Shown here one piece after another: positions 13,333-64,000 of a DNA stretch of 64,000 bases. This DNA is from Elainellaceae cyanobacterium (GTDB taxonomy: Bacteria; Cyanobacteriota; Cyanobacteriia; CAZCXK01): contig JBNPEG010000120.1 of assembly GCA_051117555.1 (NCBI GenBank), forward strand, positions 1 through 64,000, written 5' to 3'. Below the pieces are notes generated by a model. That model was not told the origin of the DNA. It ran no database searches and saw nothing but the letters and a program-made list of their open reading frames with translations. The position numbers were made by a program, and so were the translations under genes. Position 1 is the first letter of the stretch. Each line of letters opens with the position of its first letter.

Positions 13333-14187
13333 ATGATAAAAATGGAAAAAATTCTGCTAGCTGATTCGGGAACTGGACAGTCCGAAGCGATGCTCAAGTT
13401 CTTGATGGATATTCCCTTATTTGAACGTGCCAACATTAGCATCCTGCATGTAGTTCCTCCCCAAGTAACGGCTGAAGCAATGACCAATAAATGGGAGGAA
13501 GGCGGCAAAACATTAGCTCGCGCTATTCAATCCCTTCAGCTCGATACTGACCAGGCAGTTGCCATGCTTCGGGAGGGCGATCCTAAAAATGTTGTGTGCA
13601 AAGTCGCAGAGGAAATTGATGCAAACCTTATCATCATGGGGTCACGGGGTCTTAAGCGGCTCCAATCTATTTTAGAAAATTCCGTGAGTCAGTATGTGTT
13701 CCAGCTTGCCTCTCGTCCCATGTTGCTGGTTAAAGACGATATCTATGTGAAGAGGATTCGTCGAGTGCTGGTTACGATGGATCGCTCAGAATCAGCACAG
13801 CAGGCGTTACAGCTTGCCTTGCCCTTGATACGAGACATCGCTGGGGGAGAATTAGTCCTGGTTCACGTTAATCCTGACTTAAAAACTATCCCAGATCAGC
13901 CCGCCGGCAATCCTGAAAACGATCCTGTATTAGAGCCCGCAGTCGCTGAGGCGAAAAAGATGGGCATCAAGTACCGGTGTGAGGCACCTTCTGGTAAGCC
14001 AGGAGCTAGAATCTGTCAGCTTGCCGAAGACCTTGATATCGATTTGTTAGTGATGGGGTCTCCCGAACGCCGCCCTTCCATTGCAAAGGAACTTCCTGAT
14101 TTAGATCGGTTGCTGGGGCAATCTCTGTCTGACTATGTTCGAGTATATGCGCCGTGCCCGGTGCTACTGGTGCGTTTGCCAGGTTAA
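13333..14187 (+). CDS. Universal stress protein with two USP domains
   Basis: IIMGSRG..SVSQYV and LLVMGS..SLSDYVRVYAPCPVLLV. Confidence 0.9.
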   Translation: MIKMEKILLADSGTGQSEAMLKFLMDIPLFERANISILHVVPPQVTAEAMTNKWEEGGKTLARAIQSLQLDTDQAVAMLREGDPKNVVCKVAEEIDANLIIMGSRGLKRLQSILENSVSQYVFQLASRPMLLVKDDIYVKRIRRVLVTMDRSESAQQALQLALPLIRDIAGGELVLVHVNPDLKTIPDQPAGNPENDPVLEPAVAEAKKMGIKYRCEAPSGKPGARICQLAEDLDIDLLVMGSPERRPSIAKELPDLDRLLGQSLSDYVRVYAPCPVLLVRLPG

Positions 14188-14505
14188 TCAAACGATTTGC
14201 AGCGAAATCAGTTTCCGCCGACGCTTATACCCCGCGGTAGGGGTTGGCTCATATAACCGCGGTTCCAACTGCTAAACATTTGACGTTTCCGACCGTCAAA
14301 TTTTGGCTGCTTGTTTTTACTTTGTGTTGAATGTATGGCGGTATTCACTTGAGCTAAGCATTGACTTGCTAATTTAGGAGATGAATGGGCTATTAGAAAA
14401 CGCTAGAAGACAATCATCTCCTAGCGCCAAAGGGTAATTCAATAGTATCAACAGAGCGAAATTATCATTAGCAAATCCTGTTTAACGGATTGCTAGCCTA
14501 ATAAT

Positions 14506-14613
14506 TTACTTGGCTTCTCTGCTTGCCGTTTGAATGTAAAGGATAAGCAAAAAGACCGTCGGAACCAGCACGAATAAGATGCTGGCAACAAATCCTAAAT
14601 CATTAACTTCCAT
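14506..14613 (-). CDS. psbM: Photosystem II protein M (not in the ORF track)
   Basis: Hand translation: [35 protein letters not shown]. Confidence 0.96.
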
Positions 14614-14714
14614 TAGACCCAGCCTCTTAAATTCATCAAAACTATTGCAGACATCAAAAAATCCTATCTATCAGGATATCACTCTCCTACTCCGTAAGCA
14701 CAAGTCGGGATATA

Positions 14715-45314: not shown

Positions 45315-46307
45315 TCATGCTTTCTTTCGGCTAATGTCGAGAAACGTATCTAGGTCAGAGAATGATCCCGCATACGTCAGCGTTGGTGTGTCATATCCTT
45401 TGAGACTAACGGTATATTGCCTAAATAATTGATGGCTCGGAACCGATTCTGCAAGATATTTATAGGTGGTTTCTCCAAGCGCTACGTCCATGCCAATTTG
45501 CTTTGTCGAGGATTCGAGGCGGAATGCCGCGTTGACCGTATCGCCAAGCGCGGTATAGTCTGGGCGATCGCCTGTACCGGTGTTTCCAACCATCGCATAG
45601 CCCGTATTCAGCCCTGCCCCGACTCGAACGGGAAACGGCAATGGGTATCGTTCATGCAGTTGGTCTGTCATCTTGTGAAGAGAACTAAGCGCCTGCGCAA
45701 TCTGGACAATTTCTTCATGGCTGACGCCTTCTGTTCCATGAATCCAGACTGCCATAATAGCGTCGCCGATATATTTATCAACCCAACTGCCATAGTCGCG
45801 AATGATGTCCCCTGCATAGCGAAACCAGGTTCCAATCACCTCTGAGAGGATTTTTTCATCCAACTGTCGGGTCATGACCGTAAAGTCTCGGATATCAACG
45901 ACCAGAACCGAGATCAGACGACGCACATGAAGCATCGCTGTCGCTGTAAAATCTTGAGAATCGCCATCTACGGTCGTTTCGGGGCGATGCTCTACTTCAG
46001 GACAATAAAACTCTAACTCAGTTTGCCCAAATGTTAAGCGATCGGCATTTTGAAGCGTTACGGGTACGGTGACGCGACGCCCATCCACAAAGGAACCATT
46101 GCGACTGCCTAAGTCAATGAGATAGAACTCACCCGTTTCCATACGCTGCAACATGGCATGATTGCGGGATATCCAACGATCTGGCAGCACAAAATTATTG
46201 TCGTCACCGCGACCAATCGTCCAGCAGTTACTACCGGCCAGAGAAAGAAAACGATTCCCTGACTCAGTTCGAAGTATCAAATGGGGAACGGAGCGTGAGA
46301 TCACCAC
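45315..46307 (-). CDS. FHA-domain class III adenylate cyclase (CyaD/Cya1-like)
   Basis: FHA motifs (IGR, SRNHA, GSRNGS) plus VDIRDFT, DKYIGD and YTALGDTVNAAFRLE. Confidence 0.9.
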   Translation of the reverse strand: MVISRSVPHLILRTESGNRFLSLAGSNCWTIGRGDDNNFVLPDRWISRNHAMLQRMETGEFYLIDLGSRNGSFVDGRRVTVPVTLQNADRLTFGQTELEFYCPEVEHRPETTVDGDSQDFTATAMLHVRRLISVLVVDIRDFTVMTRQLDEKILSEVIGTWFRYAGDIIRDYGSWVDKYIGDAIMAVWIHGTEGVSHEEIVQIAQALSSLHKMTDQLHERYPLPFPVRVGAGLNTGYAMVGNTGTGDRPDYTALGDTVNAAFRLESSTKQIGMDVALGETTYKYLAESVPSHQLFRQYTVSLKGYDTPTLTYAGSFSDLDTFLDISRKKA

Positions 46308-50031: not shown

Positions 50032-50604
50032 CTAGTCAGCTAAAGAAATGATGCCGCATCCGATACGTCCGTCAGCATTGCCAGTGGGCTGACCGTAATC
50101 GTCGCGGTCGGCGTGAAGAATGACCGCTTTCCCGGCGACTGCCCGTTTACCTTCGGTCAAAGGAAGGTCACGAATGACTTGGGTCAGAATGCCAGTCCCA
50201 TCTTCGTAGACATAAATGTTGCCCAGGTCACCTGCATGAGCGAGATCAAACCCATCCGTAATGAGGCGACCATGTTTAACATCTTCGGGATTAAAGTGAC
50301 CGCCTGCCGCCTGCCCGCCATCATCACAACTTCCATTTTCGTGGATATGAAAGCCGTGATACCCCGGGGGGGCATTATCAATCTTGGCATCAATCTTGAG
50401 CCCGTTCAACGTTTCGGTAAAAGTAGCTTCACCAATGACTTCTGACGGGTCGCTAGTACTATAAATCGTGGCTTGTGCAGTGTCGTCTATGCTCTGAGCC
50501 CAAGCTGGACTGGGATATAGCGCATAGATTCCGAGCAATATAAACCCAGCGATCGCCAACCGTTTGGCTGTTCTCAAGACTCGATGCATGTCAATCCCCT
50601 TCAA
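50032..50604 (-). CDS. sodC: Exported Cu/Zn superoxide dismutase
   Basis: Signal peptide (AWA); HGFHIH, GGHFNP, KHG, HAGDLGN, ILHADRDD and RIGCG. Confidence 0.92.
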   Translation of the reverse strand: MKGIDMHRVLRTAKRLAIAGFILLGIYALYPSPAWAQSIDDTAQATIYSTSDPSEVIGEATFTETLNGLKIDAKIDNAPPGYHGFHIHENGSCDDGGQAAGGHFNPEDVKHGRLITDGFDLAHAGDLGNIYVYEDGTGILTQVIRDLPLTEGKRAVAGKAVILHADRDDYGQPTGNADGRIGCGIISLAD

Positions 50605-50624: not shown

Positions 50625-53600
50625 CTACCGTGTTGGGCGATTGTTTCTGTCGATGAGCCAGTATGTTGACATGTTTCCCCACCCCTTGACATGGAGCGTA
50701 CCTCGTTTCTCAAACAGGTAACGGTCTTGCAAACGCTCATGCACATGAGCTGTTACTTGAATTCGACCTTGTACCCCTTGAGTCTCCATGCGGCTTGCGA
50801 CATTGACTGTATCGCCCCATAGATCATAGGTAAATTTTTTGATGCCAATCACGCCCGCCACGACCGGCCCTGTATTGATGCCAATCCGAAGCTGGAACGG
50901 CTGACCATCATCTCGCTGGAAATATGCGATTCGCTGCTGCATATCGAGTGCCATTTCAGCGATCGCCTCTAAGTGGTCATGCCTAGGGGTTGGCAACCCG
51001 CCGACCACCATATAGGCATCCCCAATGGTTTTAATCTTTTCGAGTTGATGATAGTCGGCAAGCTGATCGAAGTTAGAGAAAATGTCATTGAGCAAATCGA
51101 CTAGCTCAGTCGGTGGAATTTGAGACGAGAGTCCGGTAAAGTCAACAATATCTGCAAATAAGATGGTGACATTATCAAAGCGATTGGCAATGAGTTTCGG
51201 GCTTTCTTTGAGTTGCTCAGTGATGGCCCTAGGCAAAATATTTAGCAATAACCGTTCAGAGCGCTGCTGTTCGTCTTGAAGAGCAATTTCAGCGCGTTTT
51301 CGTTCGGTAATATCTTGAACGGTGCCCTCATAGTAGAGCAGATGACCCTGCTCATCATGAACAGCTCGCGCATTGCTGGCTGTCCAGATAATGCTGCCGT
51401 CTTTTCGGTAGACCTGAGCTTCAAAATTAGACACCGCATTATGCTGTTGCAACAAGGCAATAAGCTCGGAGCGGCGGCTTGGATCTACGTGTAGCTTGGT
51501 TGCAATATCCGTCAAATGGGCAACCATGTCTTCAATCGACTCATAGCCGTACATTCTCACCAATGCCGGATTCGCGCTCAGGTAGCGCCCATCGTCTGTA
51601 ATTTGGTAGATGCCTTCAGCCGCATTCTCAAAAATAGTGCGATATTTCTCTTCGGCCTGTTGAAGTTGTTGCTCAGCCTGCTTTCGCTGAGTGATATCTC
51701 GCGCCACCCAAATCACACAATTATCTGGCATCGGTGACACACTGGCTGAGAACCAAATCTCATGGGGCGCTGCATGGAGGGGTGCCTTGAGGGTGGCGGA
51801 GTGGGCGTCTGATGAGATCGAGGCGGGAGTATCCGGTTGACCAGGCAGGCTGTACTCCAAAAAGACGGTTTCTCCAGTGTTAAGCGCTCGTTGAATATGG
51901 ACAACCATCAGCATTGCTTGTGCAGAGGGCATCACGTCATAGACCGTCTTGCCGATTAGGTCATTCGTAGAGTCGGTCAGGACTCCAGCGTGGTTAGACA
52001 GGACGTTGACATATTGCCCCCTGGCATCAAAGACCACCACGATATCGGTCATGGCGGCAAAGAGAGCACGCAGTTCGGTTTCAGATTGCCTCAGAGCTGC
52101 TTCAGCGCGATGACGCTCGGCAATCTCAATCACGAGTCGATCGTTTAACTCCCGCAGTGCAGCAGTCCGATCTTCGACACGTTTTTCTAATTCCTCGTTG
52201 GCTTGTCTGAGGGCTGCTTCTGCTTGCTTGCGGTCGGTGATATCTTCGACGGTGCCTTCGTAGTAGAGCAGATTGCCCTGGCGATCGCGAACAGCACGGG
52301 CATTTTCTGAAATCCAGGTGACGCTGCCATCTTTGCGATAGACGGGCGACTCAAATCGATAGACGGCATCTTGGTCTTGCAGTAAATTGATGAATTCACT
52401 GCGACGCACCGGATCCACATAGAGCTGTTGAATACTCGATGGGTGAGACATTAATTCTTCTGGAGAATCATAGCCATAAATTTTGGCAAGCGTTGGGTTG
52501 ACATCAAGATAGCAGCCGTCGATCGTGGCTTGAAAGATGCCTTCGACCGCATTTTCAAAAATGGTGCGATATTTAAATTCGGCTTGTCTGAGAGCAACCT
52601 CAGCCGTATGGCGATCGGTAATGTCGATGCCGACAACGAACACCGCTTGGTCTTGATTATATTTTTGAGCCGTGATCAAGAATTTGCGCGGTAATCCGTT
52701 GATGTGGGCTGAAATTTCTCGTAAGTTATCGCGAGCTGGGCTTGCGAAAAATTCGCGGATAAAGTCTTCAAATTCGCTGCTGGTGCTCAAAAAGCCGATA
52801 TCTTGCCCCACAAAAATGTCAGGGGGCAGGTTGAACGTTTGCGCAAGATGGCGATTGACGCCTAAATATTTTAGATCTCGATTGATCCACGATACGATGC
52901 CGGGTACTGCATCGAGCGCTGCCTGGAGTTGATCATTGGCAATGCGTAGACTGTCTTCTGCTTGACGCCGCTCGCTGATATCGATGCCGACGATAAATGC
53001 AGCCCGGTCGTAATCATATTTTTGCGCGACGATCAAGAAATTGTGGAGCGTGCCGTTAAAGTGTGCCGTGATTTCGGTTGAGGTATCACGAGCGGAGCTG
53101 TCAAAGAAGGTCTGGACAAAGGTTCTAAACTCGTCGCTAGAGTCGAGAAAGCCAATGTCTCGTCCGGCAAACTCATCGGGCGATCGCTGAAAGAATTGAG
53201 CAAGATGCTGGTTGACCCCGAGGTATTTGAGATCGGAACTAATCCACGAAACAATGCCTGGAACCGCATCTAAGACTGCTTCGAGCTGGTCTTTGGCGGC
53301 GCGGAGGGCTTCTTCTGCTCGGCTCCGTTCAATAAGTTCGGCCTGTACTTGATGATATAGCTCAGACTGATGGACGGCGATCGCCACGTTGTTGGCCAGA
53401 TGTTGAAGCAGGTCAACCTCAAACGCTTGCCAGTGACGCGGAGAACGGCAGTGATGGGCAATAAGCAGACCCCAGAGATTTTCACCCTGCAAAATAGGAA
53501 CGCATAGAGTCGCCTTCACTTGAAACTGATTCAAAAATTCGACGTGGCAGGGCGTGATATCTGCGGTATGAATGTTGGCAAGATTGAGAATGCGCCCATG

Positions 53601-54866
53601 CTGATAGAGATGGGCATAGTTTTCACCAAAGCAGGGATCATTAATTTTGCTACCCAATACCGACAGCCAGTCTTGGCTCACCGACTCAACAATGACTTGT
53701 CCGCTCCAGTCAGGGTTAAACTGATAGACCATCACTCGATCGGTCTCAAAACACTGCCGAACTTCTTCGACAGCCGTGTTAAGAATTTCATCTAGATTGA
53801 GCGATCGCCGAATCCGCAGATTGATCCCGCCGATGATTCGTTCTTGTTCGGCTTGCAGGCGAATGGCTTCTTCCGCCCGTTTGCGATCGGTAATATCGAC
53901 ACTGGTGCCAATTAGGCGATAAATGCGCCCCGCTTCATTGCGAATGGGCGTGAGGCTAGTGAGCCACCAATTGTCCTGATCCCGAAGCGAAAGGCATTCT
54001 TCATAGGTGATCTTCGTTTCTGCAGCCAAGCAATCTTGGTAATGCTGGGAGATGGAGGCTGCTGCCGCTGGTGGAAAAACCTCATCGGGCGTTTTGCCCT
54101 GAATATCGCTGGAGCTGAGCCCAATAACGGCTTCGTTGGCAGGGTTGATTCCGGCAATCTGAAATCGACCGTCTTCAAGGACGTCGATTACAAAAATTGC
54201 TTCGGCAACGCCGTCATAGATGCTGCTTAAAAACTCTTTTTGGGTCTTGAGCTCAGCTTCGGCCTGGATGCGATCGGTGACATCCCAGAAAATCCCCTGG
54301 GTGCCGATGATAGTGCCCTGGCGATCGCGCACTGGCGTTTTGACCACATGGACATAGGCGTCTGGTCCGCCAGACGACATGGGACGGTGTTCGATGATGT
54401 CTAACGTTTCACCTGTTTGCAGAACATATTCATCATCGGCTGAATATTTCTGAGCAAGATCTGGATCATATAGGTCATACACCGTCATCCCCAGGCATTC
54501 TCGTAACGTTTTCATGCCTACCGTATCGAGGAATGATGGATTGGCAAACGTGAGTCGCCCCGCGCGATCGCGGCGATACAGGCACAGAGGCAGCACATCA
54601 GTCAACGACTGATATTGGGCTTCGCTCTCTTGCAGGCATACCTCGGTGTGCTTTCGCTCAGCAACCTCGTAGATAAACTGATCGTTAGATTCTCGAAGGG
54701 CTTCCGTTCGCTCTTCAATGGTCCGCTGGAGAGCAACGTGCGCTTCTTGAAGCGAATGCTTCTGCAGCGAGCAATCTTGATTCGAACATTCTAATTCCGC
54801 AACTCTCTGACGAAGAACAACAATTTCATCAATAAGCTGCGCTTTGGGTTTGTCATAGTCATCCAT
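50625..54866 (-). CDS. Multi-PAS, DXCF cyanobacteriochrome GAF, class III adenylate cyclase
   Basis: PAS/PAC repeats (DITDRK); GAF with DPCF and PCH; FADIVDFT, EKIKTIGDAY and YDLWGDTVNVASRME. Confidence 0.92.
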   Translation of the reverse strand: MDDYDKPKAQLIDEIVVLRQRVAELECSNQDCSLQKHSLQEAHVALQRTIEERTEALRESNDQFIYEVAERKHTEVCLQESEAQYQSLTDVLPLCLYRRDRAGRLTFANPSFLDTVGMKTLRECLGMTVYDLYDPDLAQKYSADDEYVLQTGETLDIIEHRPMSSGGPDAYVHVVKTPVRDRQGTIIGTQGIFWDVTDRIQAEAELKTQKEFLSSIYDGVAEAIFVIDVLEDGRFQIAGINPANEAVIGLSSSDIQGKTPDEVFPPAAAASISQHYQDCLAAETKITYEECLSLRDQDNWWLTSLTPIRNEAGRIYRLIGTSVDITDRKRAEEAIRLQAEQERIIGGINLRIRRSLNLDEILNTAVEEVRQCFETDRVMVYQFNPDWSGQVIVESVSQDWLSVLGSKINDPCFGENYAHLYQHGRILNLANIHTADITPCHVEFLNQFQVKATLCVPILQGENLWGLLIAHHCRSPRHWQAFEVDLLQHLANNVAIAVHQSELYHQVQAELIERSRAEEALRAAKDQLEAVLDAVPGIVSWISSDLKYLGVNQHLAQFFQRSPDEFAGRDIGFLDSSDEFRTFVQTFFDSSARDTSTEITAHFNGTLHNFLIVAQKYDYDRAAFIVGIDISERRQAEDSLRIANDQLQAALDAVPGIVSWINRDLKYLGVNRHLAQTFNLPPDIFVGQDIGFLSTSSEFEDFIREFFASPARDNLREISAHINGLPRKFLITAQKYNQDQAVFVVGIDITDRHTAEVALRQAEFKYRTIFENAVEGIFQATIDGCYLDVNPTLAKIYGYDSPEELMSHPSSIQQLYVDPVRRSEFINLLQDQDAVYRFESPVYRKDGSVTWISENARAVRDRQGNLLYYEGTVEDITDRKQAEAALRQANEELEKRVEDRTAALRELNDRLVIEIAERHRAEAALRQSETELRALFAAMTDIVVVFDARGQYVNVLSNHAGVLTDSTNDLIGKTVYDVMPSAQAMLMVVHIQRALNTGETVFLEYSLPGQPDTPASISSDAHSATLKAPLHAAPHEIWFSASVSPMPDNCVIWVARDITQRKQAEQQLQQAEEKYRTIFENAAEGIYQITDDGRYLSANPALVRMYGYESIEDMVAHLTDIATKLHVDPSRRSELIALLQQHNAVSNFEAQVYRKDGSIIWTASNARAVHDEQGHLLYYEGTVQDITERKRAEIALQDEQQRSERLLLNILPRAITEQLKESPKLIANRFDNVTILFADIVDFTGLSSQIPPTELVDLLNDIFSNFDQLADYHQLEKIKTIGDAYMVVGGLPTPRHDHLEAIAEMALDMQQRIAYFQRDDGQPFQLRIGINTGPVVAGVIGIKKFTYDLWGDTVNVASRMETQGVQGRIQVTAHVHERLQDRYLFEKRGTLHVKGWGNMSTYWLIDRNNRPTR

Positions 54867-55182
54867 AGTGATAATCTCTCAATCACTAAAAGAGAGAACG
54901 ATCCGCGGATATTTCCCTCTGATCCTTGACGATAGCGCACCGATGGATACACCGAGTGAGAAATGATGGTGCGTCCGAGCAAATCAGACAGCGGTATTCT
55001 TCTTGATGCTAGAGACCCTGATATCTAAGTATTTAAAGCAAATTAAAGATTTGAGAAAGCCATGCAACAAAACAAAACAAAACAAATTTGTTGTCTTTAG
55101 TTCAAACAATACTAACTCCCGTGTTGATTTGTATTGCACCCCTACTACACGAAACAAAACATTTAGTGCCTATCCAAAAACT

Positions 55183-55294: not shown

Positions 55295-55342
55295 CGGGTT
55301 TTCGGATTCCAAAACCTCGTCAGGGGGGGGGGTGGATAGGTT

Positions 55343-58267
55343 CTAATTGGTTTCGCGTCCTGTTAGCCAATAAGTCATCATTTCTCCCCGTCCTTTTACG
55401 TTAATGAGCCCTCGTGTCTCAAACTGATAGTCAGCGCTGAGTTTGTCGCAAAAGTCCTGAGTCACTTGGATTTTGCCTCCCATCCCTTGAGACTCCATGC
55501 GGCTTGCCACATTAACAGTGTCGCCCCATAGGTCGTAGATAAATTTCTTGATGCCAATTACCCCTGCCACAACGGGGCCTGCATGAATACCAATCCGAAG
55601 CTGAAATGGTTCGCCGTTGTCGCGCTTGAATCGGATGATCTTGTCTTGCATGTCAAGCGCCATTTCAGCGATCGCCACCGCATGATCCGGACGGGATGTA
55701 GGCAGGCCGCCGACGACCATATAGGCATCTCCAATGGTTTTAATCTTCTCAAGCTGATGGTGGTCTGCAAGCTGATCAAAGCTAGAAAAAATGTCATTCA
55801 GCAGGTTGACGAGTTCGGTCGGCTGAACGCGAACCGATAGGCTCGTAAAGTCGACGATATCTGCAAACAAGATGGTGACATCATCAAAGCGATCCGCAAT
55901 TGAGCTAGGCTGCTGTTTAAGCTGTTCGGCGATCGCCATCGGCAAAATATTGAGCAGGAGTCGTTCTGACTTTTCTTGTTCTGCCTGAAGCGCAATCTCT
56001 GTTTGCTTGCGCTCGGTGATGTCTTCGACGGTGCCCTCGTAGTACAGCAACTCGCCATCTGCATCTCGTACCGCCCGGGCATTTTCCGATATCCAGATAA
56101 TTTTGCCGTCTCTGCGACAAATCTCAGACTCAAAATTAAAAATCGCATCTTGCCGTTCGAGTTCTTTCGTAAACTCAATACGGCGCTCTGGCTCAATATA
56201 GAGATGTTTTGCATCAGTCAACTCAGCCCTGAGTTCATCCACCGACTGATACCCATACATGTCAACCAGAGCAGGATTAGCACTAATAAATAGTCCGCTG
56301 GGCGTCGTCTGAAAAATACCTTCAGCAGCATTTTCAAAAATGCTGCGATATTTCGATTCGGCTTGCTGTAGGGCAGATTCTGCCTGCTTCCGCTCAGTGA
56401 TATCTCGCGCCACCCAAATCACCTGGTTATCAGGCATTGGAGACACACTTGCCGCAAACCAAGCCTCTTCGAGAGCGGTGCCGGATAGTTGACCGCGATT
56501 GTGAACCGGCAAGCTGTATTCAAGATTGACGGTTTGCCGAGTATTTAGCGCCCGTTGAATATAAATCACGAATAGCGATGCTTGTCTTTCAGGGAGGACT
56601 TCGTAGACGGTTTTCCCAATGCGCTGAATGTCAGGTTGATAGGAAAGCTCGGTATTGGTTGAAACCATCTTCAGGTAAGTGCCCTGAGCATCAAAAACCA
56701 CGATGTAATCGGTCATCGCGGCAAATAGTGCTCGTAGTTCTGCCTCCGAGTTTCGCAATGCAGCTTCGATGCGCTGTCGCTCAGAAATTTCACTCATGAG
56801 CCGAGTGTTTAAATCTTGAAGGGCTTGAGTGCGTTCCTCAACTCGGCTTTCTAATTCTTCTTTAGCTTTACGTAGCGCTTCCTGTGCTTCACGACGTTCG
56901 GTGATATCTTCGACCGTTCCTTCGTAGTACAACAATGCGCCCGCTTCGTCTCGCACTGCCCGCGCATTTTCAGAAATCCAGGTGAGTCGTCCATCTTTTC
57001 GGTAGACCTGAGATTCAAAGCCAATTACAGCATCCTTTTCCTGCAATACCGAAATAAATTCGCTGCGGCGATTTGGGTCTACATAGAGCTGTTTTTGAAT
57101 ACTGGTTAGGCTTGCCGTCAGTTCTTTCGGCGAGCTGTAGCCATAAATTCTTGCTAGAGCAGGATTCGCGCTGATATATTGCCCATCGAATGTGGATTGA
57201 AACACCCCTTCGACTGCATTTTCAAAAATGGTGCGATATTTTGCTTCGGCTTGTTTTAGCGCAGACTCAGCCTGCTTACGTTCGGTAATGTCAATGCCGA
57301 CTGTAAAGGCGGCTCGGTTTTGGTCATATTTTTGCGCCACGATTAAGAAATTTCGAAGCGTGCCGTGAACATTAGCCGCCACTTCTCGAAAGGCATCTTG
57401 AGCCGAGCTTGCAAAAAAATCGCGGACGAATGTGTTGAATTCGCTGCTGGTGTGCAGAAAGCCGATGTCCTGATTGACAAACGCTTCGGGAGGAAGATTG
57501 AAAGTTTTGGCAAGTCGCTGGTTAACGCCTAGATAGCGTAGATCGGAACTAATCCAAGAAACGATGCCTGGAACAGCCTCTAAAACAGCCTCAAGCTGGA
57601 CTTTTGCCGCCCGAAACGCGAGCTCGGCTTGTCGGCGTTCTGCGACTTCTTCAATGAGCTGGTCATTTGACTCTCGAAGGGCGGCGGTGCGCTCTTCCAC
57701 TTTGCGCTCTAGTTCTACTTTTGCCTGATTTAATGCGGCTTCGACATGCTTTCGCTTGGTGATATCGATACAGATGCCTTCGTAATACAGCAACGTGCCA
57801 GTCGGGTCGCGAACAGCGCGAATATTTTTAGACACCCAGATCGCGTTGCCATCCTGTCGATAAAGTTGGCATTCAAACTCTTGGACAACGTCTCTCTCTT
57901 CAAGGGTTTGAATCAGCAAATAATACTGGCTTGCATCGACATAAAGCCGAGCATCCGCCTCAGCAACCGCATCGATTAGCTCTTGAGACGTTTGATAGCC
58001 GAGCATGGCAACAACGGTTAAATTGGCGTATACATATCGCCCATTGGGTGCAATTTGGAAAACCCCTGCAACCGAATTCTCCAAAAACTGGTAGTAGCGT
58101 CGCTCAGGATCATCAGGCGACTCGTTCGTCTGGAGGCATTCTTGGCCTGTCACCTTGGATCTGGCTATTTGACTGCGGATTGCAACCGATTCTTGAAGCA
58201 GTTGGTCGTTCGTAGTGGGGTCGTCTTGCATGGATGGTGGATTTTCTACCCGTGGGGATGTAAACAT
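55343..58267 (-). CDS. Multi-PAS class III adenylate cyclase, paralog of the adjacent gene but without the GAF
   Basis: PAS/PAC repeats; FADIVDFT, EKIKTIGDAY and YDLWGDTVNVASRME. Confidence 0.92.
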   Translation of the reverse strand: MFTSPRVENPPSMQDDPTTNDQLLQESVAIRSQIARSKVTGQECLQTNESPDDPERRYYQFLENSVAGVFQIAPNGRYVYANLTVVAMLGYQTSQELIDAVAEADARLYVDASQYYLLIQTLEERDVVQEFECQLYRQDGNAIWVSKNIRAVRDPTGTLLYYEGICIDITKRKHVEAALNQAKVELERKVEERTAALRESNDQLIEEVAERRQAELAFRAAKVQLEAVLEAVPGIVSWISSDLRYLGVNQRLAKTFNLPPEAFVNQDIGFLHTSSEFNTFVRDFFASSAQDAFREVAANVHGTLRNFLIVAQKYDQNRAAFTVGIDITERKQAESALKQAEAKYRTIFENAVEGVFQSTFDGQYISANPALARIYGYSSPKELTASLTSIQKQLYVDPNRRSEFISVLQEKDAVIGFESQVYRKDGRLTWISENARAVRDEAGALLYYEGTVEDITERREAQEALRKAKEELESRVEERTQALQDLNTRLMSEISERQRIEAALRNSEAELRALFAAMTDYIVVFDAQGTYLKMVSTNTELSYQPDIQRIGKTVYEVLPERQASLFVIYIQRALNTRQTVNLEYSLPVHNRGQLSGTALEEAWFAASVSPMPDNQVIWVARDITERKQAESALQQAESKYRSIFENAAEGIFQTTPSGLFISANPALVDMYGYQSVDELRAELTDAKHLYIEPERRIEFTKELERQDAIFNFESEICRRDGKIIWISENARAVRDADGELLYYEGTVEDITERKQTEIALQAEQEKSERLLLNILPMAIAEQLKQQPSSIADRFDDVTILFADIVDFTSLSVRVQPTELVNLLNDIFSSFDQLADHHQLEKIKTIGDAYMVVGGLPTSRPDHAVAIAEMALDMQDKIIRFKRDNGEPFQLRIGIHAGPVVAGVIGIKKFIYDLWGDTVNVASRMESQGMGGKIQVTQDFCDKLSADYQFETRGLINVKGRGEMMTYWLTGRETN

Positions 58268-58954: not shown

Positions 58955-59917
58955 ATGATCGCGAGTCCTCCTCGTACCGTTCGGATAGGTTCCCGAAAGA
59001 GTCAACTGGCTCTTATTCAAACCCATTGGGTTCAACAACAGTTGCAGGCGTCATTCCCCGATCGCACGTTTGAGGTGCACACGATGAGCACCCACGGCGA
59101 CAAAATTTTAGATGTGGCGCTGTCAAAAATTGGTGACAAAGGACTGTTTACAAAAGAACTAGAGCTAGGAATGCTGCAAGGAGAGATCGACTTTGCAGTA
59201 CATTCTCTAAAAGACTTGCCGACTCGTTTACCCGATGGGTTAATGCTCGGCTGTGTCACAGAGCGGGAAGACCCCTCAGATGCGCTCGTGATGCATGCCA
59301 AGTATCGCGATCGCCAATTAGAAACCCTGCCTGAAGGGGCTGTGATTGGTACGTCGTCGTTGCGTCGGCTTGCTCAATTGCGCCATCACTATCCTCATCT
59401 AACCTTTAAAGATGTGCGAGGCAATCTCAATACACGGTTGCAAAAGCTCGATAACGGTGACTACGATGCCATTATTCTGGCTGTTGCTGGCTTAAAGCGC
59501 ATGGATATGGGCGATCGCATTCACCAAGTCATCTCCCCTGAGATTTCGCTCCATGCAGTCGGTCAAGGAGCATTGGGCATTGAATGCCGCAGCCAAGATT
59601 CCGATATTTTGTCGCTTCTTAAAGCATTAGAACATTCTGCAACAGCTCAGCGATGTTATGCAGAGCGAGCATTTTTACGAGAACTTGAGGGAGGCTGTCA
59701 GGTTCCGATTGGCGTCAATACGGAGATAGCGGGTGAGACGCTAACGATTACCGGCTTGGTCGCTAGCCTAGATGGTAAACGGGTGGTTAAAAATCGCGTC
59801 TCCGGATCGCTCGATACGGCTGAAACGTTGGGAATCAAACTAGGGAAACTATTGAGAGAACAAGGAGCGCAGGAGATTTTGGATGAAATCTTCGCTCAAA
59901 TCCAGCGAGAGGCTTAA
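58955..59917 (+). CDS. hemC: Hydroxymethylbilane synthase
   Basis: [33 protein letters not shown] and [10 protein letters not shown]. Confidence 0.98.
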
Positions 59918-60995: not shown

Positions 60996-61330
60996 TTGCA
61001 AACGCATCTATAGCTTTACGTTCTCGTGTTAGGACGCTGAACGTGTGTAGAACCGCTGATTGAGTGACAAAAGTTCCTTGCGTAGTAGCACGGCAAGTCT
61101 CAAAAGGGGAAATTGTGTTGCATCTCGGGTTAGTGTGGCGATCGCCCAAAATTATCCGGTTAACGCGAAAATGATCGTGAAGTTTACGTCAAGAGTCATG
61201 GATTTTACGGAGGAATGATAGATTAAATTTAGTAGGCGAAATTAAGAAACATCAGGGATTTGCATCGCTTCAAATCATTGCTTCATCGTCGTTCGATCCA
61301 TTGGTGTGGTTTACGGAAAACGTTGCGATC

Positions 61331-62326
61331 ATGGATTTCTTTCAAACTGAGCCTAATCAGGATATATCCCATCTCTCCACCCATCTTTCCACCACTCATC
61401 ACGCCTCGACTCGTTTAATCTCCGCCGTATTCTCATCAGCCCAAATATCAGCCCAAATATTCACTCAGACATCGCAGTTTAATTTCACCCAACGAGTCTG
61501 GAAGATTTTGATAGGGGCAAGTCTCGCAACCAGCGTGAGCCTAGGCGTTTCGTCTGCACGTTCCCAAGAGCTTCAGGTTCCGCCGGGGCAACGATGGTTA
61601 GAGGTTAGACAGACGGTCGGCACGGTTCAATATCGCCAGGGGGAAGCATCACGACCTGCCCGAGTGGGCGATCGCCTGCAACAAGTGGGGCATGGCATTG
61701 ATACGGCATTGCAGTCTACATCGGTGCTAGAACTTGATACCCAGATTGGAGCGGTTCGAGTTGCCGAAAATACGCGGCTTCTCGTACAAACATTAACGGT
61801 CTTGAGCGATGGGGGACGCGTGACTGCGCTTCGCGTTGATCGCGGGCAGGCGCGGCTGCAAATTCGTCGGTTTACCCATCCGAGTTCAGAGCTTGAGATC
61901 GAAACACCTGCTGGGGTCGCCGCTGTCCGGGGTACTATTTTCGGTGTGACGGTGGATGAGGTTGGTAAAACCGGGGTTGCAACCCTGTCAGGCTCGATTG
62001 AAGCGAGCGCACAAGGAGAGACGGTGGTTGTGAATCCAGGATTTGCAACCACCATTATCCCTGGAGAACCCCCGACAGAGCCTCAGCCGATCGACCGCGT
62101 CTTGCAATTGAGAACTCGCACCATTCGGCGGACAAGTGGCGGTATCATTTTGAGCGGTCAAGCCGATCCTGCAAATCTTGTACAGGTTAACGGGCAAGAC
62201 ATTGCGACTCGCTCTGACGGTCGATTTAGCACGTTCATTCCGTCCTCTCCCTTTGAACCGTATGTTCGCGTTACAGTCCGCAACCCGGTTGGAGAGGAAC
62301 GAACCCACGAATTTATCGCGCGTTAA
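61331..62326 (+). CDS. FecR-domain exported protein
   Basis: Hydrophobic segment; LEIETPAGVAAVRGTIFGV FecR motif; C-terminal Ig-like beta region; start uncertain. Confidence 0.8.
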   Translation: MDFFQTEPNQDISHLSTHLSTTHHASTRLISAVFSSAQISAQIFTQTSQFNFTQRVWKILIGASLATSVSLGVSSARSQELQVPPGQRWLEVRQTVGTVQYRQGEASRPARVGDRLQQVGHGIDTALQSTSVLELDTQIGAVRVAENTRLLVQTLTVLSDGGRVTALRVDRGQARLQIRRFTHPSSELEIETPAGVAAVRGTIFGVTVDEVGKTGVATLSGSIEASAQGETVVVNPGFATTIIPGEPPTEPQPIDRVLQLRTRTIRRTSGGIILSGQADPANLVQVNGQDIATRSDGRFSTFIPSSPFEPYVRVTVRNPVGEERTHEFIAR

Positions 62327-62338
62327 AATGTTTCCCTA

Positions 62339-64000
62339 ATGGCAGTCCAAAATTATAAAGTGCCGCAAACTCATCAGAAAACGGTGCGCTCCCTCCTTCG
62401 ATATCTTGGCAGGCGGCTGCGAGGGCGATCGCTGCTGCCGGGGCTGGTGATTTCGGCGCTTTCGATTGGGCTGTGGCAGCTCGGAGTTTGGCAACCACTA
62501 GAGCGAATCAGCTACAGTACGCTCTTTCAGGTGAGAAATGCTGTATTTTCGACCTCAGGCTGGGATTCTAGGATCGCAGTGATTGCGATTGATGATGTCA
62601 CGTTAGAGCAAGATGGCAGTTTTCCGATTCCTCGACGCCGTTACGCCGAGCTGCTGCGCAAGCTAGAGGCATCGCTCCCAGCCGCCATCGGGTTTGATAT
62701 TCTGTTTGCAGAAAGCGCGCCAGATGATGCTGAATTTGCCAGCGCGATCGCTGACCAGTGGAATGTGGTGTTGGCCGTTGCCGCAAACTCCCAAAGTCAG
62801 ACGATTCAGCCCACATCCAGATTGGCCTCCGTGGCTGCTGATGTAGGGCATGTTATCGTCTCACCTGAGCCTGACGGCATCAGCCGCCGCATGTGGCTTT
62901 ATCACGGCAACACGCCTGCATTAGGGCTTGCCCTAGTGCAGACATATTACGAAAGTCTATACATGACGGCAGGGACAACGGTCGATGCAGACTACAATCC
63001 TCGTCTGGTCAAGTCAGTTCTAACACTGCCCAATCGCCACGTCTGGATCAACTGGCCCGCTCCGGTTCATCACCCAGACTCTCTACACTCCACAGGGGAA
63101 CCAGAACCGTCTTGTCGCAGCCATTTTGAACCCGGTGATGCGGTCGTGTATCCAATGGACTGCATTCTGAGTGGGGCAGTCAGCCCAAGCGTCTTGACGA
63201 ACAAAATCGTGCTGGTCGGTGTGACGGCAACGGGGGTTGATACGCTTCAAACTCCGTTTGATCAGGTTCCCCCAACCTCGAACGTCTACTTACACGCTGC
63301 ATTAGTCGATAATTTGCTAAACGATCGCCTACTACGCCGATCGCCTCTTTGGGTTGACGCAGTTCTCCTCATGAGTTTAAGCATTGGCGTCACCGGATTG
63401 CTGGCTTCTAAGGGCCCCCAAAGCCGTCTGGCGATCGCCATCGGATTACCCCTCCTATGGTTTATGGGAGCACTGCTGCTGTTTAGCGCAGGGTGGTTGA
63501 TTCCGGTCGCCGCTCCCATTGGCACCGTTACGATTGCGGCCATGGGAATCCAGCTTCGAGAACAGTATGAAAAACAGCAACTGATGGATCTGTTCTCGAT
63601 GCACGTTGCCCCAGAGATGGCAAACCTTATCTGGCAGCGGAAAGCCGAAATCTTTCAACAAGGCAAAATTCAAGCACAGGAGCTAATAGCAACCGTGCTG
63701 TTTGTTGATATTCGAGGATTTACGTCTGTTTCAGAAATGCTGCCGTCTCAACAACTCGTCGACTGGCTAAACCGTTACTTTAACGTGATGTCTGCGTGCA
63801 TCACGACTCATGGCGGCATTATCGACAAATATATTGGAGATGAAATCATGGCGGTGTTTGGTGATCCCACTCACCTTGCTGATGCAAACGATATTCGCCA
63901 AAATGCTGTCAATGCGATCGCCGCTAGCCTCTCGATGCGGCGTCAGCTTCATCAGCTCAATTACCAGCTTGCATCGGAAGGCAGTCCTACGATTGAGTTC
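62339..64000 (+). CDS. CHASE2-domain class III adenylate cyclase, 3'-partial (runs off the window; not in the ORF track)
   Basis: Hand translation from ATG 62339: TM, WDSRIAVIAIDD, AIGFDILF, PDGISRR, KIVLVGVTA, TMs, then ATVLFVDIRGFT and DKYIGDEIMAVFG in the same frame. Confidence 0.9.
   Translation, partial: MAVQNYKVPQTHQKTVRSLLRYLGRRLRGRSLLPGLVISALSIGLWQLGVWQPLERISYSTLFQVRNAVFSTSGWDSRIAVIAIDDVTLEQDGSFPIPRRRYAELLRKLEASLPAAIGFDILFAESAPDDAEFASAIADQWNVVLAVAANSQSQTIQPTSRLASVAADVGHVIVSPEPDGISRRMWLYHGNTPALGLALVQTYYESLYMTAGTTVDADYNPRLVKSVLTLPNRHVWINWPAPVHHPDSLHSTGEPEPSCRSHFEPGDAVVYPMDCILSGAVSPSVLTNKIVLVGVTATGVDTLQTPFDQVPPTSNVYLHAALVDNLLNDRLLRRSPLWVDAVLLMSLSIGVTGLLASKGPQSRLAIAIGLPLLWFMGALLLFSAGWLIPVAAPIGTVTIAAMGIQLREQYEKQQLMDLFSMHVAPEMANLIWQRKAEIFQQGKIQAQELIATVLFVDIRGFTSVSEMLPSQQLVDWLNRYFNVMSACITTHGGIIDKYIGDEIMAVFGDPTHLADANDIRQNAVNAIAASLSMRRQLHQLNYQLASEGSPTIEF

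Follow-up and report, generated by a model that had tools for sequence, protein, structure and literature searches.

An adenylate cyclase gene of a soil filamentous cyanobacterium carries one GAF domain of the cyanobacteriochrome type within a chain of seven PAS domains. The gene lies on the minus strand at positions 50625-54866 of contig JBNPEG010000120.1 (Elainellaceae cyanobacterium, assembly GCA_051117555.1), of which the first 64,000 nucleotides, hereafter the window, were analysed. Its product, the query, may be a natural long-range photoswitch: a two-cysteine light sensor would act on a catalytic domain 728 residues away through five PAS domains, as one term of a multi-input computation, while repeats coding for the interdomain linkers are the likely recombination substrate. 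We put the probability of this reading at roughly one in three.

The GAF domain as a two-cysteine cyanobacteriochrome by sequence

By every sequence test available, the GAF domain classifies as a two-cysteine (DXCF-type) cyanobacteriochrome. Comparison with all PDB chains gave 107 matches, and the top of the 60 shown consists entirely of cyanobacteriochromes or their derivatives. The best match is 6oap, a REC-GAF dual-sensor kinase (E 1e-47, 165 bits), followed by miRFP670nano (PDB 6mgh, from NpR3784) and its derivatives (E 8e-45 to 2e-38; best 156 bits). NpR6012g4, Slr1393g3, RcaE and AnPixJg2 rank below these, and TePixJ is found at E 9e-31 to 6e-30 (110 bits). Identity over the whole domain is about 50% to each of the two solved bilin-binding proteins, 6oap and miRFP670nano, and the Asp, Cys and His of their bilin pockets align with the query. 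Cys440-His441 fall on '...tech' of 6oap and on Cys86 and position 87 of miRFP670nano; Asp410 falls on the Asp of D-R-Y-F in the latter, which is D56 after a 16-residue tag offset. The offset was confirmed against the H87Y substitution described in an excerpt of PMC6336887, where D56 is stated to hydrogen-bond the nitrogens of bilin rings A-C. Cys412 lies two residues past this pyrrole-binding Asp and is therefore at the defining position of the DXCF second cysteine. The motif is defined as Asp-Xaa-Cys-Phe, and its cysteine is reported to add to bilin C10 (PMC11284453, in excerpt).

A preliminary description of this DNA had placed DPCF at 53628-53639 and PCH at 53544-53552, within a GAF domain at ~53360-53810. 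Both motifs are exactly there (residues 410-413 and 439-441), and Pfam sets the domain at 53373-53798. Among the Pfam matches at E <= 0.01 there is no PHY domain, and the GAF is flanked by ordinary PAS domains. Judged by these alignments, the motif match is not a chance event.

GAF neighbours were pooled from three protein searches, and every GAF domain was re-scored singly, because ranking by summed score favours multi-GAF proteins, and then aligned. Among 190 near-full-length related GAFs of at least 150 bits, 107 combine the DXCF-column Cys with Cys-His, 39 combine it with Cys-Tyr, and 19 have Tyr together with Cys-His. When the 120 best-scoring domains were placed in a tree (FastTree), the Tyr-type GAFs formed small groups scattered among Cys-type ones; the DXCF-column Cys is present in 105 of these 120. 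The query joins the orthologues P0003 and P0004 (support 95), then P0005, and stands near the fragment P0313 and kinase-borne DPCF domains.

DPCF and the canonical Cys are kept in all four other GAF-bearing orthologues (P0003, P0004, P0005 and locus L077), and the adjacent His in three of them, P0005 having Tyr. With the window and L077 compared (dS about 0.5), the GAF core has a dN/dS of 0.12 and the GAF plus its linkers one of 0.09; the PAS parts on either side give 0.08 and 0.06. These values indicate that the GAF is under purifying selection wherever it is retained. The host genome contains one match to a PcyA-like ferredoxin-dependent bilin reductase (E 4e-78). Binding of bilin is likely, and we are quite confident that the domain both binds bilin and photoconverts.

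The preliminary description had also expected a blue/green photocycle. Its two-cysteine DXCF assignment agrees with the sequence; its colour pair is not predictable, the nearest solved structures belonging to the NpR3784 lineage, and cannot be assigned from the GAF tree because that tree holds no spectrally characterised protein. Blue/green is one of several possible two-cysteine photocycles. TePixJ (PDB 3vv4, 4fof/4glq), a DXCF blue/green sensor, shares the two-cysteine design of the query, a likeness measured by whole-domain score, and is farther from it than the NpR3784-type structures (110 versus 165 bits). The query nevertheless stands outside the NpR3784 lineage, because it has Ile408 and Cys412, whereas that lineage has Val two residues before the Asp and no second Cys (PMC11284453, in excerpt).

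Replacement of Cys-His by Cys-Tyr, seen in the 39 domains mentioned above (P0005, P0255 and P0293 among them), deserves a remark of its own. The engineered fluorescent miRFP670nano has the same change, H87Y, so natural Cys-Tyr GAFs may differ in fluorescence or photoconversion.

The catalytic domain and the helix before it

The preliminary description spoke of an intact K/D-type catalytic domain, and its motifs indeed align with mammalian adenylate cyclases. The alignment covers C1 and C2 of cyclases 8, 5 and 9 over FADIVDFT, KIKTIGDAY and YDLWGDTVNVASRME. Mammalian membrane adenylate cyclases match with E about 1e-74 (both halves together) and Rv1625c-type enzymes with E 1e-56 to 1e-60. Asp1239, Asp1283, Lys1279, Asp1348, Asn1355 and Arg1359 are all present. 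We take the Asp residues of FADIVDFT and IGDAY to be metal-binding, the Lys/Asp pair of KIKTIG and YDLWG to serve adenine, and the Asn/Arg of TVNVASRME to serve the transition state. By its motifs the domain is an intact Lys/Asp-type class IIIa cyclase, and the enzyme very probably makes cyclic AMP (cAMP). It is expected to work as a homodimer whose chain carries both half-sites.

The core is preceded by a helix, ERLLLNILPxxIxEQLK, which orthologues and more distant relatives have kept and which matches, in the alignment with adenylate cyclase 9, the stretch ahead of its C2 core. We regard this helix, ERLLLNILPRAITEQLK, as a putative cyclase transducer element, a concept taken from an excerpt of PMC5995499.

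The cyclase family and relatives with GAF next to the cyclase

Searching with the whole protein gave 5903 proteins at E <= 0.001, of which the best 120 were listed. Most of these 120 share about 64% of the query (from PAS3/4 to the cyclase) at 55-65% identity and are collinear with it. They come from filamentous cyanobacteria (e.g. Trichodesmium, Okeania, Dapis, Spirulina, Hormoscilla and Geitlerinema), and the N-termini of most carry other modules, such as periplasmic-binding-protein-like domains, or none. The query is thus a member of a family with a collinear PAS4-PAS5-coiled coil-PAS6-PAS7-cyclase core. The closest orthologues were found in Elainellaceae cyanobacterium assemblies. P0003 and P0004 are 71% identical to the query and collinear; P0005 (59%) has one extra N-terminal PAS and a single member of the PAS3/PAS4 pair, and in its GAF Cys-Tyr replaces Cys-His. 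No paper on this PAS-chain family was found in literature searches not aimed at it. A cyanobacteriochrome inside a long PAS-chain cyclase was not described in the literature searched, and the study of the cyclase cPAC, outside that search, may list such candidates.

The preliminary description had suggested a search by domain architecture. A GAF is present in 4 of the best 120 homologues listed (the query, P0003, P0004 and P0005), and in two relatives, P0338 and L128, GAF and cyclase are joined directly. P0338 is a REC-GAF-cyclase of 540 aa; its GAF, with DPCF and PCH, is 62% identical to the query GAF, and its cyclase is of the same type. A relative of P0338, 70% identical, is present in an assembly of Allocoleopsis, presumably the current genus name of strain PCC 7113. 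Locus L128 (5554-8985, plus strand), on another contig of the Elainellaceae assembly that holds the GAF-less orthologue L075 described below, encodes REC-PAS-PAS4-like-PAS5-PAS6-GAF-cyclase (1144 aa) with a DPCF/PCH GAF in place of PAS7; P0313 is a fragment of this type. The same GAF type adjoins the same cyclase type in both P0338 and L128, so the one can be coupled to the other.

A search with the GAF alone was confined to proteins of 777-2473 aa, and a cyclase domain was found in none of the best 120 listed, a ranking by summed score in which multi-GAF proteins dominate. The query itself, with 403 bits, falls under the last listed row (427 bits). Because of the summed score, this list says nothing on the number of single-GAF cyclases. 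In the host genome (6.06 Mb, 256 contigs) we counted 13 cyclase-domain matches and 22 matches to the query GAF at E <= 1e-10. The query open reading frame (ORF) alone joins both, the other 12 cyclase matches sharing no ORF with any of the 22 GAF matches.

The GAF domain as a removable cassette

No full-length homologue is closer to the query than P0002, encoded at locus L075 of another Elainellaceae assembly, with 93% identity over aligned columns. What it lacks is residues 330-516, the span of the GAF with its two helices and nothing more. In the DNA this is an in-frame gap of 561 nt, each end of which lies inside a copy of a linker-coding repeat. This repeat belongs to a family of 45-nt direct repeats, present in 9 copies at 51270-54284 of the window (60-71% identical, spaced 117-558 nt), which code for a DIT-x-RK-x-AE helix linker after each sensor domain. 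Two copies flank the GAF. A stretch of 12 nt, GCAGAAGAAGCC, is common to both of these in L077, and in the window the PAS2-side copy differs by one base. The junction in L075 has the length of the native PAS3-to-PAS4 linker, and the GAF-less gene is intact (1227 aa). L077, from a second Elainellaceae assembly (2785-nt contig), keeps the GAF, with 91% identity.

A FastTree phylogeny of 121 proteins, built on their C-terminal 790 residues, pairs the query (P0001) with P0002 (support 100) and places this pair, together with P0003 and P0004, which both have the GAF, in a group of four (support 100). Most simply read, the GAF was lost in the L075 lineage. P0005 stands on a long branch, away from the other GAF-bearing proteins, a position from which no second origin of the GAF is concluded. 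The linker-coding repeats are the likely recombination substrate by which sensor domains are moved, duplicated and deleted in this family. The exact, in-frame removal of one whole domain between 12-nt direct repeats clearly illustrates domain gain and loss in modular sensor proteins.

Indels are absent from both GAF linkers of the GAF-bearing orthologues. In soil metagenomes of two studies, contigs of 637 nt (2 differences) and 246 nt (1 difference) run across both junctions of the GAF, as does a 5930-nt contig of a relative with about 93% identity. Several joints with short sides (21-52 nt), met in metagenome contigs at the linker repeats, are read as cross-matches between repeats or relatives, not deletions; none of the joints listed skips the GAF.

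Proposed mechanism

We give even odds to the view that the gene encodes a homodimeric class IIIa cyclase integrating several inputs, one of them being the two-cysteine GAF, which interrupts the helical connection from PAS2 to PAS3. In such an enzyme, Cys440 would bind phycocyanobilin covalently. In the dark 15Z state Cys412 would add to bilin C10, producing a violet- or blue-absorbing form; light would turn the bilin to 15E and break the Cys412-C10 bond, with a photoproduct that might absorb anywhere from teal to orange. Photoconversion would then shift the packing or register of the long helices leaving the GAF. The signal would travel along the DIT-motif helical linkers and PAS3-PAS7 to the ERLLLNILP helix and on to the catalytic dimer, and cAMP synthesis would go up or down. 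The protein is pictured as a parallel dimer on a helical spine, with sensor states summed at the pre-catalytic helix. The sequences establish domain identities, motifs, conservation, selection and the availability of a bilin reductase; attachment of the bilin, the colours of the photocycle, the geometry of the dimer, signal transmission and how strongly and in which direction light acts, and with them light control of cAMP across five PAS domains, are what we infer here. That light changes cyclase activity at least two-fold seems to us slightly short of an even bet.

The helical spine is suggested by the uniform DIT-helix linkers, the invariant lengths of the GAF linkers and an AlphaFold2 model of PAS2-GAF-PAS3 of moderate confidence, in which a 29-residue helix leads into the GAF and about 52 helical residues lead out. 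Between the end of the GAF (498) and the start of the cyclase (1227) there are 728 residues with five PAS domains. The preliminary description had contrasted this layout with the much more compact one of the cyclase cPAC; the query does differ from its GAF-cyclase relatives P0338 and L128, in which the GAF abuts the cyclase.

If the long-range photoswitch is real, it offers a natural signal crossing a long PAS array, and little is understood of the transfer and integration of signals in arrays of this kind. In a filamentous soil cyanobacterium with 13 cyclase-domain matches in its genome, it would also connect cAMP with the colour of light. A comparative series is at hand, with the sensor distal in the query, next to the cyclase in L128, in a compact protein in P0338 and excised in L075. 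The allelic and paralogous series, the repeat-mediated excision of a domain and the unpredictability of the colour pair are new from this analysis.

Evidence against the photoswitch and alternative explanations

A number of points weigh against the long-range photoswitch. The PAS2-GAF-PAS3 model is only moderate (mean pLDDT 65.7, 5 sequences, part of PAS3 <50). Each PAS domain may add its own signal and damp that of light over the 728 residues. The enzyme does not need its GAF, because the 93%-identical GAF-less orthologue stays an intact gene; by this comparison the GAF adds an accessory input to a multi-sensor enzyme rather than forming the core of it. No RNA data set was listed for this stretch of DNA. 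The closest solved relatives of the GAF are red/green one-cysteine proteins of the NpR3784 lineage (165 and 156 bits versus 110 for TePixJ), and for this reason no colours can be deduced from them. Among the representatives with a GAF, the closest 20 were scanned; they are histidine kinases, GGDEF proteins or other non-cyclases, and a cyclase domain is absent from all 20. Finally, even the compact cPAC is listed, in an excerpt of PMC9614035, with about 3-fold regulation.

The chief alternative is that the photoreceptor works but its signal misses the cyclase. The GAF would then not gate catalysis measurably and the PAS signals would set cAMP output. The GAF may instead act on dimerisation, on the binding of partners or on the N-terminal PAS1-PAS2 unit, or the PAS chain may dissipate its signal. 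Such an outcome would suit a PAS4-PAS7-cyclase core that is widespread at 55-65% identity with varied N-terminal sensors or none (GAF in 4 of the best 120 listed), that persists in a natural GAF-less orthologue and in a GAF-less tandem paralogue, and that lies distant from the sensor. It sits less well with a GAF which, in the model, is in-line within the helical spine rather than appended, whose linkers are of constant length on both sides among orthologues, which purifying selection constrains as strongly as it does the PAS domains, and which adjoins the cyclase in relatives. We hold this rival to be less likely than not, and it is the one to be taken most seriously.

Less still speaks for a GAF that is no photoswitch at all, having no bilin, or a bilin without photoconversion, or serving in thiol/redox or small-ligand sensing via its cysteines. 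Cys-Tyr variants are common (39 of 190 related GAFs, the orthologue P0005 included), and the gene lies directly upstream of a Cu/Zn superoxide dismutase gene. Against this, the domain has about 50% identity over its whole length to two bilin-binding proteins of known structure and retains the Asp, Cys and His; both cysteines are kept in every GAF-bearing orthologue; and a bilin reductase is encoded in the host genome. We consider a non-photoswitching GAF quite improbable.

A chimera made in assembly, or a gene in decay, as a draft of 256 contigs and a gene with many internal repeats that could mislead an assembler might suggest, is hardly credible as an account of the long fusion in view of a frame open over 1413 codons, collinear orthologues in other assemblies (P0003, P0004, L077), soil metagenome contigs of two studies spanning both GAF junctions, and a dN/dS of about 0.1.

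Comparison with known cyclases

A natural cyanobacteriochrome-cyclase has already been described, namely cPAC of Microcoleus sp. PCC 7113, the protein of Blain-Hartung et al. 2018 (J Biol Chem 293:8473), the layout of which is reportedly compact. Like the query, cPAC unites in one polypeptide a GAF of the cyanobacteriochrome type with a class III adenylate cyclase. The query differs from the layout ascribed to cPAC in having five PAS domains and 728 residues between GAF and cyclase and two PAS domains before the GAF. By sequence, then, the query shares its parts with a known system and departs from it in their arrangement. It also lacks the direct single-helix coupling of GAF and cyclase found in its relatives P0338 and L128. 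Excerpts of PMC8892541 and PMC9614035 describe cPAC as phycocyanobilin-binding and switched about 3-fold by blue and green light.

Other photoactivated cyclases, bPAC and OaPAC with BLUF, mPAC with LOV and the engineered phytochrome or cyanobacteriochrome chimeras IlaC, PaaC, AnPixJg2-AC and Slr1393g3-AC, join a photosensor to a class III cyclase via helical linkers (PMC9614035, PMC8707292 and PMC5995499, all in excerpt). In these the sensor adjoins the cyclase, and their photochemistry is that of flavin, biliverdin or one-cysteine bilin, unlike that predicted for the query. Bistable two-colour chemistry is attractive for optogenetics. The use in this field foreseen by the preliminary description is doubtful for a protein of 1413 aa with seven PAS domains, and the compact relatives, P0338-type proteins above all, are far more practical candidates.

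In its catalytic domain the query resembles mammalian membrane and Rv1625c-type cyclases (PDB 8buz, 8sl3, 4p2f, 1yk9, 5o5k; E 1e-56 to 3e-74), sharing with class IIIa enzymes the metal-binding Asp, the Lys/Asp pair and the Asn/Arg motif; the putative transducer helix before its core is conserved. It is soluble and regulated by PAS and GAF domains, whereas the mammalian and Rv1625c-type enzymes rely on membrane domains or G proteins. With the PAS-chain family it shares the core, other members being mostly without GAF.

Domain order and gene neighbourhood

The frame of the gene is unbroken through all 1413 codons. Domain order was derived from Pfam scans of the full-length protein and of ten overlapping pieces (Table 1).

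Table 1. Features of the GAF-containing cyclase gene and of its two adjacent genes in the window
Feature	Position	Strand	Remarks
Whole cyclase gene, stop codon included	50625-54866	-	coiled coil-PAS1-PAS2-GAF-PAS3-PAS4-PAS5-coiled coil-PAS6-PAS7-cyclase, 1413 aa
N-terminal helical, coiled-coil-like segment, residues 1-85	54612-54866	-	weak match to helical CREPT model
PAS1, residues 90-199	54270-54599	-	PAS_4 E 1.7e-19
PAS2, residues about 212-330, C-terminal end DITDRK	53877-54233	-	PAS_4 E 7e-17; AlphaFold2-modelled PAS fold
Linker-coding repeat copy, PAS2 side of GAF	53853-53897	-	codes ...DITDRKRAEEAIRLQ; one end of the L075 deletion
GAF, residues 357-498, two-Cys cyanobacteriochrome (predicted)	53373-53798	-	PF01590 E 8e-28
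DXCF motif Asp410-Pro-Cys412-Phe413, second Cys	53628-53639	-	residues 410-413
Bilin-attachment Cys-His (predicted), Pro439-Cys440-His441	53544-53552	-	aligned to 6oap and miRFP670nano
Linker-coding repeat copy, PAS3 side of GAF	53295-53339	-	codes ...ELIERSRAEEALRAA; other end of the L075 deletion
PAS3, residues about 532-635, divergent PAS	52962-53273	-	PAS_4 E 8e-4, under Pfam cut-off; AlphaFold2 and Foldseek
PAS4, residues about 651-753, divergent PAS	52608-52916	-	PAS_4 E 6e-4, under Pfam cut-off; AlphaFold2 and Foldseek
PAS5, residues 766-876	52239-52571	-	PAS E 1.5e-10, PAS_9 E 3e-11
Long helical linker PAS5-PAS6 (predicted), residues about 880-930	52077-52229	-	from sequence; weak helical CREPT match
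PAS6, residues about 937-1066	51669-52058	-	PAS_4 E 6e-9 (first part), PAS_7 (last strands)
PAS7, residues 1073-1190	51297-51650	-	PAS_9 E 6e-13
Pre-catalytic helix ERLLLNILPRAITEQLK, residues 1204-1220	51207-51257	-	invariant or near-invariant among orthologues
Class IIIa adenylate cyclase catalytic domain, residues 1227-1405	50652-51188	-	PF00211 (Guanylate_cyc) E 6e-69
Upstream tandem paralogue, PAS-chain class IIIa cyclase without GAF	55343-58267	-	974 aa; 65% identical over 780 residues (query 629-1407)
Cu/Zn superoxide dismutase gene sodC, signal-peptide-like start	50032-50604, likely ATG 50588	-	ATG 36 nt past cyclase stop

The preliminary description had counted two PAS domains ahead of the GAF and about five between it and the cyclase. 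Pfam finds both of the former, and of the latter three are clear by Pfam and two, PAS3 and PAS4, by AlphaFold2 and Foldseek; the count is correct because these two are real PAS folds. Their AlphaFold2 model (20 sequences, mean pLDDT 79) consists of two five-stranded PAS units with an N-terminal helix on each, and its best Foldseek matches in the PDB are the tandem PAS domains of DosP, MmoS and FixL (E 2e-10 to 2e-9). Comparison of the PAS3-PAS4 profile with PDB sequences gave weak matches, the best being to a PAS sensor (E 0.015). Weak as they are by Pfam, PAS3 and PAS4 are, on this model, genuine PAS folds, and PAS4 is an old duplicate of PAS3.

Residues 1-85 gave no PAS or GAF match in Pfam and probably form a coiled coil; the orthologues keep the start MDDYDKPK or MNDLGKTK. 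PAS6 has a low-complexity insert at about 1008-1036, the length of which differs between orthologues. Names of NCBIfam 'equivalog' models (Tlr1612 family phosphodiesterase, ArcB and others) scored far under their cut-offs and were rejected, because such matches reflect shared PAS/GAF domains alone. PAS7 has weak matches to YtvA and LOV kinases; it was not accepted as a LOV domain because a flavin-binding Cys motif is not visible in the sequence.

The tandem paralogue sits 476 nt upstream of the query gene, and the same pair order is found in L075 and L077. The spacer between the two cyclase genes contains a run of TTTTG-type short repeats (55056-55110), of which 55056-55094 was passed over as repeat in the read alignment, and, just past the paralogue stop, a C run (~55320-55335). 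Downstream, the order cyclase-sodC is shared by L075, where the gap is 45 nt. In the window scan the gap separating the cyclase gene from sodC contained no terminator-like site, such sites, like promoter-like ones, being no commoner in the window than in shuffles; co-transcription of the two genes is possible. In L075, sodC is directly followed by an IS605 OrfB/TnpB-like gene of 396 aa (13488-14675, plus strand), which has no counterpart at this place in the window.

Four cyclase genes lie within 19 kb around the query gene. Apart from the tandem pair, these include an FHA-cyclase gene of 330 aa (45318-46307, minus strand) and a CHASE2-cyclase gene (62339-64000, plus strand), which runs off the window and is preceded by a FecR-domain gene (61301-62323, plus strand). 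The gene hemC (58955-59914) is divergent from the cyclase pair. Elsewhere in the host genome, the same class IIIa domain with the same pre-catalytic helix is present in a REC-PAS-cyclase of 504 aa (G000:C111, L152 485-1996, minus strand) and in a membrane-anchored cyclase of 432 aa (G000:C81, L153 395-1690, minus strand).

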